Shown here piece by piece: positions 543 through 2,890 of a stretch of 64,000 nt of DNA. Below the pieces are notes generated by a model. It did not search any database. It was not told where the DNA came from and saw only the letters and a list, made by a program, of their open reading frames with translations. The stretch comes from a virus, in the IMG/VR virus record IMGVR_UViG_3300018031_000005, positions 1 to 64,000 of that record, one strand, 5' to 3'. The translations under genes and the position numbers were made by a program. Every line of letters begins with the position of its first letter. Position 1 is the stretch's first letter.

Positions 543-571
543 TAGATTAGTAATCTCGGAAGAAATCTCGT

Positions 572-605
572 AAGACGTATAATTTTGGAAGACGTATAAT
601 TTTGG
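572..605. repeat. 17-bp tandem duplication AAGACGTATAATTTTGG x2, each copy containing TATAAT
   Basis: Direct reading. Lies just upstream of the first Y-RNA-like unit and may be a promoter or operator region. Confidence 0.75.
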
Positions 606-623
606 AATACATATACAAAAATG

Positions 624-756
624 TGAGCCGACGTGAAAAGGTTATTCAGCAAAACTGGAAAATCCGGGTAACACCGAAAATGCCAGTTTATTAGTTTGCC
701 TTGATAAGCAAACCTTGTTCGTGAGAATAAGTTTCCTTTTTACAAAACCTTGCTCA
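624..756 (+). ncRNA. Y-RNA-like RNA 1 (about 133 nt)
   Basis: 5' UGAGCCGACGUGAAAAGGUUAUUC pairs with 3' CCUUUUUACAAAACCUUGCUCA (UGAGC/GCUCA, GAAAAGG/CCUUUU). Internal hairpins AACUGG/CCAGUU and GUUUGC/GCAAAC. Confidence 0.6.
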
Positions 757-803
757 TATTTAAATATTAAATAATAAACAACAATGAAAATAATAAACAA
801 TAA

Positions 804-921
804 CGAGCCGCTGGATGAGGGTTATCTCTGTTAAAGAAGAGATCCGGGTTCAAATCCCGGCTTGGCGTAAGCTAGGTAGTTTAATGGCTAGAACACTAAT
901 ATCCTCGCCGTTTTTTGCTCG
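804..921 (+). ncRNA. Y-RNA-like RNA 2 with tRNA-like module (YrlA-like)
   Basis: Terminal stem CGAGC/GCUCG plus GAGG/CCUC and a GGGUUAUCUC strand. Internal CCGGG-UUCAAAU-CCCGG T-arm mimic followed by a D-arm-like GCUAGGUAGUUUAAUGGCUAG. T-run follows. Confidence 0.65.
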
Positions 922-1001
922 TTTGTTTTTTAATATTTTTTTGTTTTTTTGAAAATTTAGTTCTACTTTTATCGACTGTTAGTTTAGTAATATAAACTTT
1001 G

Positions 1002-1056
1002 GCGAGCCGACAGTGAAGGTTATCTTATTATGAATCCTTTGCTAATACTAGTTCGC
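1002..1056 (+). ncRNA. Y-RNA-like RNA 3 (minimal, about 55 nt)
   Basis: GCGAGC/GUUCGC and GAAGG/CCUUU stems flank a GGUUAUCUU loop, followed by TAATTTTTATT. Confidence 0.5.
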
Positions 1057-1064
1057 TAATTTTT

Positions 1065-1106
1065 ATTTATAAAAGATTATTTATAAAAGATTGTTTATAA
1101 AAGATA
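1065..1106. repeat. 14-bp tandem repeat ATTTATAAAAGATT x3 (third copy diverged)
   Basis: Direct reading. Located between Y-like units 3 and 4. Confidence 0.8.
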
Positions 1107-1117
1107 TAAACAACAAA

Positions 1118-1196
1118 CTGAGCCGCAGCTAGTAGGTTATCATTTTATATATGTTATTGTCCTTTGGGACAATTTCCTACTGCGAATTTTGCTCAG
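1118..1196 (+). ncRNA. Y-RNA-like RNA 4 (about 79 nt)
   Basis: Clean bulged terminal stem CUGAGC/GCUCAG, CGCAG/CUGCG, GUAGG/CCUAC. GGUUAUCAU strand, internal hairpin UUGUCC-UUUG-GGACAA, T-run after the 3' end. Confidence 0.7.
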
Positions 1197-1249
1197 CTAT
1201 TTTTTAAAATATAAGGGTTTATTTGCCCTTGAGGGGCGGAAAGGTATTT

Positions 1250-2890
1250 ATGGCACGCCAAAAGTCATCTGGTAAGTTTTTAACTACTCACTTTACTACT
1301 GGTAAGCAAACTACTCGCCGTAAGATTACTTCTCAAAATCTTCCTATTCCTAGCGAAGAGAATAAGCAGGTAGTTAATAGTGCCGGTGGTTTTGTTTATG
1401 AAGTTGAAAATCTTACTCGTCTTCAGCGCTTTCTAGTTTTAGGTACTGAGGGCGGTACTTACTATCAGTCCGAAAAAGATTTGACCATTAAAAATAGTGA
1501 TAACATATTGGCTTGTCTAAGCGCCGATGGCGAAACTAGTGATAAGACGGTTGCAACCATCATTGATTTCTGGAACAACAATAGGGCTCCAAAGCCAAAT
1601 CCAATTATGTTCGCACTAGCACTTGCTGCTACAAAGGGCGGACTAGCTAATAGAGCACTTTTGCGTAACAAATTTAATGAAACTGTACGCACTGGTTATC
1701 ATTTGTTTAGATTCATCCACTATGTTAACGAATTCCGTGGTTGGGGTCGTTTCCTAAAAAACCTCGTACGTGATTGGTACGTAAAGAAAACTCCTCAGCA
1801 AGTTGCTTTTCAAGCTGCCAAATATCAACAGCGTGAAGGTTGGAGTCATCGAGACGTTTTGCGCCTTGCTCATATTAATAGTCCAGTTCACGCCCCTGTT
1901 TTTAAGACTATTGTTGGTAAGGCGGCCGAAGATGAACTAGTACAGCCTTTTGCAGTAATGAATGATTTGAATAAAACTCAGGATATTAAAAAGGCAGTAG
2001 CTGCAATTAAGGAATTTGGTTTAACTCACGAAATGCTACCAACTGAATTAAAATCTTCTGTTCAAGTTTGGGGCGCTCTTCTTGAGAAGATGCCAATGAC
2101 TGCGCTAATTCGTAATCTTGGCGTAATGACAGCGAACGGCACTTTGTGTAAAGGCGATTTTAATCGTACCATTGAAGTTGCTGCAAAAATTAATAACGAA
2201 GATAATCTTCGCAAGGGTCGCATTCATCCAATTCAGATTTTATCGGCTCTTTCGGTTTATGGCCAAGGTCATGGTGAAAGGGGTTCATTAAGTTGGACTC
2301 CTGTGGGCGAAATTAAGGATGCTCTGGATGATGCTTTTGTTAAGTCATTTAAATTTGTTGAGCCAACAAATAAGAAGTTTTTGCTTGGTATCGATGTTTC
2401 GGGTTCAATGGGTGGCGGCGTTATTGCTGGTGTTCCCGGTCTTACACCTTGTATGGCTGCTGCTGCGATGGCTATGACTACTGTGCGTACAGAACCTTAT
2501 TGTTTGCCAATGGCATTCTGTGATGGGTTTGTCGAACTTGATATTACAAAGAAGTCAACTATTAATAATGCTATTAAAGAATGTGAAGATAAGAATTTTG
2601 GTGGTACCGATTGTTCCTTACCAATACAGTATGCTACGAAAAAAGGTCTTGATATCGACGTATTTGTGGTGTATACTGATAATGAAACTTGGTGCGGTGG
2701 AATTCATCCAAAGCAGGCTCTAGCACAATATCGCAATAAGTTTAATAAGAATGCCAAACTAATTGTTGTTGCATTTACTGCTACCAAATTTAGTATTGCC
2801 GATCCAGAAGACAAGGGGATGCTAGATGTGGTTGGTTTTGATGCTTCAGCGCCTGCGGTTATGAACGAATTCGTTTTAGGTAATATTTAA
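1250..2890 (+). CDS. rsr: Ro60/Rsr-like protein (TROVE-like N-terminal region plus vWA domain)
   Basis: ORF 1223..2890 trimmed to ATG 1250 (GGAAAGG upstream). Length and layout match Ro60. C-terminal MIDAS-type motif IDVSGSMGGG ... YTDNETW. Adjacent to the Y-RNA-like genes. Confidence 0.8.
   Translation: MARQKSSGKFLTTHFTTGKQTTRRKITSQNLPIPSEENKQVVNSAGGFVYEVENLTRLQRFLVLGTEGGTYYQSEKDLTIKNSDNILACLSADGETSDKTVATIIDFWNNNRAPKPNPIMFALALAATKGGLANRALLRNKFNETVRTGYHLFRFIHYVNEFRGWGRFLKNLVRDWYVKKTPQQVAFQAAKYQQREGWSHRDVLRLAHINSPVHAPVFKTIVGKAAEDELVQPFAVMNDLNKTQDIKKAVAAIKEFGLTHEMLPTELKSSVQVWGALLEKMPMTALIRNLGVMTANGTLCKGDFNRTIEVAAKINNEDNLRKGRIHPIQILSALSVYGQGHGERGSLSWTPVGEIKDALDDAFVKSFKFVEPTNKKFLLGIDVSGSMGGGVIAGVPGLTPCMAAAAMAMTTVRTEPYCLPMAFCDGFVELDITKKSTINNAIKECEDKNFGGTDCSLPIQYATKKGLDIDVFVVYTDNETWCGGIHPKQALAQYRNKFNKNAKLIVVAFTATKFSIADPEDKGMLDVVGFDASAPAVMNEFVLGNI

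Follow-up and report, generated by a model that had tools for sequence, protein, structure and literature searches.

Most familiar as human autoantigens, Ro60 and its Y RNAs have a core function that is still debated. Ro60 contacts its Y RNA mainly through the 5′ strand GGUCCGA; both strands of this docking site are kept in Deinococcus, while the 5′ strand alone is kept in the YrlA RNAs of Salmonella and Mycobacterium, and the tRNA-like part of Deinococcus Yrn1 is arranged unlike that of YrlA-type RNAs (PMC4201824). More than 250 bacteria and phages encode YrlA RNAs beside Ro60 (PMC4201824). Mycobacteriophages, CcrColossus and Bacillus phage G have been reported to possess Y RNA-like RNAs, and a jumbo-phage survey found TROVE proteins with a tRNA-like partner (PMC7824862). 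In Thermus phage phiLo, Yrl1 and Yrl2 are encoded 5′ of phiRo60, bind phiRo60 and form complexes with the host PNPase; crystal and cryo-EM structures have been solved (PDB 9KOP and 9L5Y; NAR 2025, PMC12135203), and the Ro60-Yrl-PNPase complexes cut PNPase activity by ~70-76% in vitro (PMC12135203). Here we describe a putative module of this kind in the IMG/VR virus record IMGVR_UViG_3300018031_000005, of which positions 1 to 64,000 were analysed (the window; coordinates below refer to it unless another contig is named). An earlier note on this DNA had proposed four tandem Y RNA-like genes directly upstream of a Ro60/Rsr homologue.

The region 620-2890 is likely a phage-encoded Ro60 ribonucleoprotein module, consisting of four Y RNA genes and the gene of their protein partner. 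The motif, stem and position of the four RNA units make it very likely that they are Y RNAs partnered with the adjoining Ro60, while any particular downstream function is put forward tentatively. The window is phage DNA, with genes for terminase, portal, tape measure, PhoH, thymidylate synthase, ribonucleotide reductase and DHFR.

The protein encoded next to the RNA units is a full-length Ro60/Rsr homologue. Its gene (1250-2890, + strand) starts with ATG and encodes 546 amino acids, with a TROVE region (the HEAT-repeat ring) followed by a von Willebrand factor A (vWA) domain. The earlier note had recognized the size and layout of Ro60 in this coding sequence, and Pfam searches agree: TROVE (PF05731) matches at 136 bits (E=2.5e-39, cut-off 23) and vWA_Ro60 (PF25045) at 206 bits (E=4.4e-61) over the entire model (1-165 of 165). 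Alignments run end to end with the PDB entries for Deinococcus radiodurans Rsr (2NVO, 1e-117), RO60 (9NEN, 1e-112) and Xenopus Ro60 (1YVP, 6e-109). The metal ion-dependent adhesion site motif DVSGS...T...D is present, and DVSGS, GGTDC and YTDNET are retained when the protein is aligned with Rsr and Ro60. The stretch KYQQREGWSHRDVLRLAH aligns with human KYKQRNGWSHKDLLRLSH, and K191, R195 and H208 are the aligned counterparts of human Ro60 K170, R174 and H187. From the mutagenesis literature we take K170 and R174 to be implicated in Y RNA binding and H187 in RNA binding in the cavity. An identical 546-residue protein is present in public assemblies, and 356 GenBank phage records, mostly of actinophages, encode homologues annotated ‘Ro-like RNA binding protein’.

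Upstream of this gene and on its strand, the motif GAGCCG-N8-10-RGGTTATY has its only four matches in the window (625-646, 805-826, 1004-1024 and 1120-1141, all +), and it was found in none of 100 dinucleotide-preserving shuffles. GAGCCG by itself occurs 15 times in the window, so specificity sits in the compound motif. These counts bear out the four tandem units with a common 5′ strand described in the earlier note. Its boundaries (624-756, 804-921, 1002-1056 and 1118-1196) are replaced here by those of the full stems, 620-760, 802-923, 999-1059 and 1118-1196. The array ends 54 nt before the Ro60 start codon.

Folded alone, each of the four units takes the same form: the 5′ and 3′ ends make a terminal stem, which leads through an asymmetric internal loop to a second helix. 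The 5′ strand of this helix ends in GG, and the distal loop is then opened by UUAUC in units 2-4 or UUAUU in unit 1. Fold z-scores against shuffles are -4.7, -3.0, -2.8 and -3.6 for units 1 to 4. The 5′ strand of the stem runs ..GAGC-C-G-N-N, then a helix of 7-9 bp ending GG, then UUAUC; the 3′ strand runs from the helix complement through 6-8 nt ending YUY to G-CUC.... The docking helix, with its bulged C, has GAGC-C-GA in units 1 and 3 and GAGC-C-GC in units 2 and 4, facing a 3′ strand of CUU-, UUU- or CUA-G(C/U)UC.

Beyond this shared stem the units differ greatly. Candidate Y RNA unit 1 (620-760, +, 141 nt) closes with AAUGUGAGC/GCUCAUAUU, has GUGAAAAGG/CCUUUUUAC as its second helix, and continues with GGUUAUU, not GGUUAUC; its distal module holds three hairpins and lacks tRNA-like arms. 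Candidate unit 2 (802-923, +, 122 nt) is YrlA-like and is taken up below. Candidate unit 3 (999-1059, +, 61 nt) is a minimal form, almost the docking stem alone. Its terminal stem, UUGGCGAGC/GUUCGCUAA, pairs via G-U pairs, with a 3′ strand reading ACUA-GUUCGCUAA and not ending in UUUUGCUC as had been claimed; the second helix is AGUGAAGG/CCUUUGCU, and the distal loop of ~16 nt includes the UUAUC. Candidate unit 4 (1118-1196, +, 79 nt) has the terminal stem CUGAGC/GCUCAG, the second helix UAGUAGG/CCUACUG and a distal module of one hairpin, UUGUCC-UUUG-GGACAA.

The flanks of the units hold possible transcription signals. T-runs, which the earlier note had called usual, lie directly 3′ of the closing stem in units 2, 3 and 4; the 3′ flank of unit 1 is TATTTAAATATT, with no clean T-run. 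A/T-rich -10-like hexamers (TATAAA, TATACA, AATAAA) lie 7-9 nt 5′ of each stem, a weak inference. Short tandem direct repeats are found just 5′ of units 1, 2 and 4 (552-597, 769-806 and 1063-1105), made of 2-3 copies of GGAAGACGTATAATTTT-like sequence, two of AAATAATAAACAAYAAYGA and three of TTATTTATAAAAGAT, respectively; they may be promoter or operator elements. Between the last unit and the Ro60 ribosome-binding site there is a hairpin, AAGGG-TTTATTTG-CCCTT (1213-1230, +), which may be the terminator of unit 4 or an element of the 5′ untranslated region.

Unit 2 carries tRNA-like features in the order known from YrlA. Distal to the docking stem, the V stem-loop occupies 824-843, the T-arm mimic CCGGG-UUCAAAU-CCCGG 844-860, the acceptor-like stem-loop 861-876 and the D-arm mimic 879-894. 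All four elements of the YrlA tRNA-like domain, in which the T-arm has a GUUCRAAUC loop and the D-arm has GG, are present in this order. In a 721-nt search the YrlA model RF02553 matched this unit over its full length (1-114 of 114) with 28.3 bits and E=6.5e-4, below the gathering score of 69.

The closest relative, L022, is a 24-kb ENA scaffold whose Ro60 is 73% identical. It has five units at the corresponding position, two of them tRNA-like, in an array that lies between the homologue of the open reading frame (ORF) at 141-542 and Ro60. Unit 2 and unit c of this array share 78% identity, with compensatory changes in the terminal, acceptor-like and D stems, and the T-arm and D-arm covary between the two contigs. 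Unguided RNAalifold on 13 long units likewise recovered the terminal stem, the T-arm and the D-arm with compensatory changes. The relative also has a counterpart of the hairpin that precedes Ro60, GCCC-GCAA-GGGT (L022:3975-3990). Megablast of positions 1-12000 against GenBank phages gave no match, so there is no annotated close relative among them.

Other tRNA or tRNA-like structures are found at such loci. In some viral contigs a tRNA that is nearly complete and not permuted lies within the docking stem of a Y RNA (L010:5955-6095 and L001:3576-3679); inside these stems ARAGORN calls tRNA-Ile(GAU) at L010:5999-6073 and tRNA-Phe(GAA) at L001:3592-3661, and the Rfam tRNA model also matches L010:6002-6068. 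Directly 3′ of Ro60 in the window is a tRNA-like cloverleaf with the anticodon loop CUCAUAA (2991-3074, +; L022:5737-5820 in the relative). Its conservation between the two far exceeds that of its flanks, and the acceptor and anticodon stems hold four compensatory pairs. The D-arm is long and the T-stem bulged; neither ARAGORN nor, at E<=5, the Rfam tRNA model detects the cloverleaf. A non-canonical tRNA(CAU) is one possibility, another RNA tied to the Ro60 module a second.

A wider comparison was made from a back-translated search of IMG/VR, which yielded 21 Ro60 loci with homologues of 36-46% identity. In a simple scan, G(G/A)GCCG(G/A)A-N7-8-GGTTATC adjoins Ro60 on the same strand in most of the 21 loci, in 1-6 copies, and the contigs that carry the Ro60-linked motif span 31% to 68% GC. 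Units were then collected by an anchored search with fixed loop geometry, giving 41 distinct units from 13 phage-like contigs. Two other procedures were rejected: a looser 5′ pattern brought many false positives, and choice of the 3′ partner by folding energy per length favoured excessively long partners and ran adjacent units together.

The 41 units share one geometry. A terminal stem of 5-9 bp ending ..GGC or ..AGC is followed by C, G, R and A, then by a 9-bp helix ending GG, then by UUAYC; on the 3′ side the helix complement is followed by 6-8 unpaired nt ending YUY and then by G and the stem complement. Covariation was counted on fixed-frame mini-constructs of the units; several 3′ ends were misplaced when 24 short units were aligned at full length with plain MAFFT, and that alignment was not used. 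Pairing was found in 86.6% of cells (90.0% in the terminal stem, 90.8% in the second helix), against 62.3% for shuffled units and 32-45% with the partners slid, percentages that are inflated by the complementarity search through which the 3′ partners were found. Cells with changes on both sides numbered 233 against 74 ± 8 in the control, 17 of 21 pairs had compensatory changes (14.5 ± 1.2 when shuffled), and none of 500 shuffles reached the observed score. The docking helix itself switches among GGGC/GCCC, GAGC/GCUC, GAGC/GUUC, GGUC/GACC, GGAC/GUCC and GGGU/AUCC. The constant loop lengths and the conserved YUYG are independent of the complementarity search, and the slid controls together with the fixed loop lengths argue that the stem signal is real.

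A covariance model and a 5′-strand weight matrix were trained on the 37 units from outside the window. Run on the whole window, both strands, with filters off, the covariance model finds unit 3 (24.3 bits, E=0.0043) and part of unit 4 (E=2.4); it misses units 1 and 2. Built from mini-constructs, the model cannot bridge 90-nt distal inserts. The weight matrix places units 4, 2 and 1 as the top three of ~128,000 window positions, with 27.6, 23.4 and 17.3 bits, the next position having 9.9.

The stem can also be read against known Y RNAs. The 5′ end of human Y4 RNA is GGCUGGUCCGAUGGUAGUGGGUUAUCAG, a sequence confirmed by exact-string matches in papers on Y4 (e.g. PMC7012775). GGUC-CGAU-GGUAGUGGG-UUAUC of Y4 and GAGC-CGCA-GCUAGUAGG-UUAUC of unit 4 have the identical 4+4+9+5 register, and the likeness to the vertebrate GGUCCGA...GGGUUAUC strand that the earlier note had pointed out is correct. 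On the 3′ side, metazoan Y RNAs and nematode stem-bulge RNAs (sbRNAs) have YUUG and the stem complement, as the phage units do; their genomes, polymerases and termination systems are unrelated to those of the phage. Two units from related loci, L020:3404-3475 and L013:3210-3283, pass the gathering threshold of the nematode sRNA family RF01656 (41.0 and 40.6 bits against 38). The members of this family are stem-bulge RNAs, which we take to be Y RNA homologues. Other phage units match the Deinococcus Y RNA model RF01053 weakly (26.5 against a threshold of 80). The Rfam consensus sequences of the two families, UCGGUCCGGaG..GGGUUAUC...ACUUGACCG for RF01656 and GGgCCgaAG..CGGUUaC...CucGcCC for Deinococcus, present one module, GGNCCGRAG..GGUUAYC...CUYGNCC. 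The stem of the phage units matches, in both sequence and register, the helix by which metazoan Y RNAs, nematode sbRNAs and Deinococcus Yrn1 dock onto Ro60, and we assign the units to the two-strand, Deinococcus/metazoan type. The likeness may stem from shared ancestry with Ro60 or from limits set by the protein surface.

Several observations weigh against a Ro60/Y RNA module, in addition to the inflation of the pairing percentages. Within 540-1260 the models RF00019, RF01053 and RF01656 give no match even at E<=10, and no unit of the window attains any Rfam gathering score; at gathering thresholds the whole window returns no Y RNA family, only tRNAs and RNase P RNA. Covariance models, which the earlier note had named as a check, did respond, with sub-threshold YrlA similarity in unit 2 and a match of unit 3 to our own model, and nothing from RF00019. 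The small helix just after the bulge pairs in only 64% of cells among the 41 units, and the R of the consensus is replaced by C in units 2 and 4 (CCGC, not CCGR), weakening the G-U/R-U pairs that follow the bulge. A scan for sigma-70 promoters and terminators did no better than on shuffles (18 sites against 14.8 expected in this AT-rich DNA) and is uninformative. Among the 33 window ORFs scanned there is no PNPase, RtcB, RNA ligase or other obvious effector, and gene searches were limited by the window, 64 kb of a contig of ~168.5 kb. A TROVE match in the protein, covariance-model matches in two units, and conservation with covariation of the stems in related genomes (the 41 units, and RNAalifold on the long ones) were nevertheless all obtained, and the Y RNA/Ro60 reading of the earlier note is supported.

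Arrays of this kind turn out to be common. Of the IMG/VR loci curated here, L010 holds six units (3′ of Ro60), L012 and L021 five each, and L001 and L020 four each. The GenBank phages Francob, Cashline and Sparky each have two unannotated copies of the motif 5′ of their Ro-like gene. A scan of IMG/VR with one exact variant of the motif returned at least 120 stretches; 31 of those listed also encode Ro60 in the fetched DNA, and 89 of those listed have no Ro60 match within it. The pattern specifies 15 bases, and by our own estimate many single matches may be due to chance; only the 31 Ro60-linked stretches were used. These, among the matches listed, mostly have 3-5 and up to eight loose 5′ motifs on the Ro60 strand. 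Mixed-size arrays of 2-6 units are typical of the phage Ro60 loci examined, and the four-gene array of the window, which the earlier note had thought unusual, is not exceptional. Leaving aside PMC10870794 and the supplementary phage table of Chen 2014, our literature search found no paper describing such arrays. In the GC-rich loci L012, L013 and L020, nearly every unit is followed by ACACAAY and not by a T-run (e.g. L012:3593-3600 and L020:3476-3483), and this shared motif suggests that the array is co-transcribed and that its units share a processing site.

The surroundings of the module are rich in genes for stable RNAs and translation. The window has 22 tRNA genes. Inside the tRNA cluster lies a bacterial type A RNase P RNA (RF00010; 10407-10724, +), which matches the full model at 165.7 bits (E=1e-51). 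Blastn with it found nothing similar in 50,697 GenBank phage records, and a limited literature search found no paper pairing RNase P RNA with phage terms. Also among the tRNA genes are those for an RF-1-domain protein (PF00472, 1.9e-16; 7930-8358, +), perhaps a peptidyl-tRNA hydrolase of the ArfB type, and a peptide deformylase (3.9e-25; 9747-10196, +). About 1 kb 3′ of Ro60 a second protein with a DxSxS start (RSGS) is encoded (3919-4629, +); it has a weak vWA match (Pfam VWA_4, E=0.006) and matches PHROG 7371, of unknown function (3.7e-55), and a gene of similar size stands at the corresponding position in the relative (L022:5851-6543). At the other end, tandem ~19-nt repeats of the AATAATATAATAAAT type occupy 1-125 (L023:4760-4880), 5′ of the ORF at 141-542, and in the full contig this repeat array is preceded by a ~1.3 kb non-coding stretch.

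How might such a module work? By analogy with Xenopus, Deinococcus and phiLo, each RNA would use the conserved stem to dock on the outside of the Ro60 ring, and the four differing distal modules would set a further binding partner, gate the central cavity, or both. A likely partner, by analogy with D. radiodurans RYPER and with phiLo, would be a host 3′-5′ exoribonuclease such as PNPase; no phage PNPase is present in phiLo or among the window ORFs scanned, and a host partner is therefore presumed. The ribonucleoprotein may feed structured or misfolded RNAs to the exoribonuclease or may restrain it, and the tRNA-like unit 2 may engage tRNA-handling enzymes. The outcome could be degradation of misfolded phage or host RNA, protection of phage RNA by nuclease sequestration (as the phiLo result would have it) or counter-defence. 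The 22 tRNAs, the RNase P RNA, the RF-1-domain protein and the peptide deformylase would fit either upkeep of the phage's translation RNAs or resistance to RNA-targeting defences of the host. The phage-run RNA surveillance or processing module of the earlier note is a reasonable inference that was worded too strongly.

It is possible, if somewhat unlikely, that the RNAs and protein are what they seem and serve as an anti-defence or host-takeover device instead of in quality control. The complexes would then sequester or inhibit the host PNPase or another nuclease, or the RNAs would act as tRNA-like decoys, shielding phage transcripts and tRNAs from host immunity. The lowered PNPase activity of the phiLo complexes in vitro points this way (PMC12135203), as does the tRNA-like unit 2 in a phage so heavily invested in its own tRNAs and RNase P RNA. 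Coliphage Bas63 encodes, beside tRNA genes, a protein of Ro60-like structure (gp130) that is reported to counter ppl defence (PMC11482910), although Bas63 is a distant phage and the evidence comes from a preprint. The ORFs scanned include no gene for a defence-related partner near the module, and inhibition and activation of a nuclease look alike in sequence.

The discreteness of the RNAs can be questioned as well. The Ro60 mRNA might have a long 5′ leader in which the elements are Ro60-binding sites for autoregulation or transcript stabilization, and not free small RNAs. They do lie directly 5′ of the coding sequence on its strand, no convincing sigma-70 promoters or canonical terminators separate them, and ACACAAY in place of T-runs in the GC-rich relatives suggests co-transcription with processing. 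Against this, the six units of L010 are 3′ of Ro60, T-runs come right after the closing stems of units 2, 3 and 4, and the characterized homologues (Yrn1, YrlA/B and phiLo Yrl1/2) are discrete stable RNAs (PMC4201824, PMC12135203). Even a co-transcribed array, once processed, would give Y RNAs, so such a leader competes with Y RNA genes only in a strictly cis-acting form, which we consider very unlikely. That the repeats are decayed tRNA-derived or other intergenic elements unlinked to Ro60, coincidentally resembling Y RNAs, might be suggested by the tRNA-like arms of unit 2, the tRNA-rich genome and the lack of an Rfam match for three of the four units, but a compound motif of zero chance expectation that recurs beside Ro60 in many unrelated contigs of 31-68% GC, always on the Ro60 strand, that covaries and that matches the curated Y RNA and sbRNA consensus sequences effectively refutes it.

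Taking the units as Y RNAs of the adjoining Ro60, a broader idea can be entertained, unlikely as we judge it: phage Ro60 loci may in general carry a small library of Y RNA adaptors, with one docking stem and varied distal modules. Curated loci have 2-6 units, and the loose motif gives up to eight among the matches listed. Across loci the distal modules range from none through single hairpins, three hairpins and permuted tRNA mimics to, in some contigs, a near-complete embedded tRNA. Were the idea true, one Ro60 ring could be retargeted to several host RNA enzymes or could present several decoys during infection, and the library with the phage RNase P RNA and 22 tRNAs would amount to a largely self-contained system for maturing and protecting stable RNAs.

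Phage versions of Ro60 and its Y RNAs are compact and experimentally tractable. In this locus and the ~40 related units, phages have kept the canonical docking helix, varied the effector-side module and multiplied the genes. The resulting natural series, from a 61-nt minimal form to one of 141 nt, could be used to probe the role of the half of a Y RNA that does not dock, and it bears on whether viruses turn the system to RNA quality control or against host nucleases. Y RNA genes that Rfam models miss, such as the unannotated ones of Francob, Cashline and Sparky, would be found with the consensus G(G/A)GCCG(R)A-N7-8-GGUUAYC, a 3′ YUYG and the stem complement.

Besides the metazoan Y RNAs and nematode sbRNAs, three described systems bear comparison with this locus. 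In D. radiodurans (RYPER; RF01053; 2NVO), Rsr is the best solved-structure match to the phage protein, several Y RNAs (Yrn1/Yrn2) are encoded 5′ of the Rsr gene as in the phage (PMC4201824), and Yrn1 keeps both strands of the docking helix, with the consensus GGGCCGAAG..CGGUUAC...CUCGCCC, the same as in the phage units. That system is cellular whereas this one is viral, and the window units have no RF01053 match at E<=10. With the YrlA/YrlB RNAs of Salmonella, Mycobacterium and a mycobacteriophage (RF02553; Chen et al. 2014), unit 2 shares the order of V, T, acceptor-like and D elements, and both there and in the window a long tRNA-like Y RNA stands alongside shorter ones. In enterobacterial and mycobacterial YrlA only the docking 5′ strand GNCGAAN0-1G is recognizable (PMC4201824), whereas the window units keep both strands and the UUAUC; unlike the YrlA/YrlB system, the window module has no adjoining rtcBA operon.

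The third is phiLo. The phiLo protein is not among the PDB sequence matches of the window Ro60 at E<=1e-5, and the two proteins are therefore distant. The phiLo phage has two RNAs whereas the window has four, one of them with a tRNA-like domain; the window phage is AT-rich, ~168 kb long and has many tRNA genes. In both, Y RNA-like genes stand immediately 5′ of a phage Ro60 gene on the same strand, and the RNAs share a stem-bulge-stem architecture and a 5′ motif containing CGA. Phage Ro60/Y RNA modules are thus already known in kind, and the locus described here is a further example.

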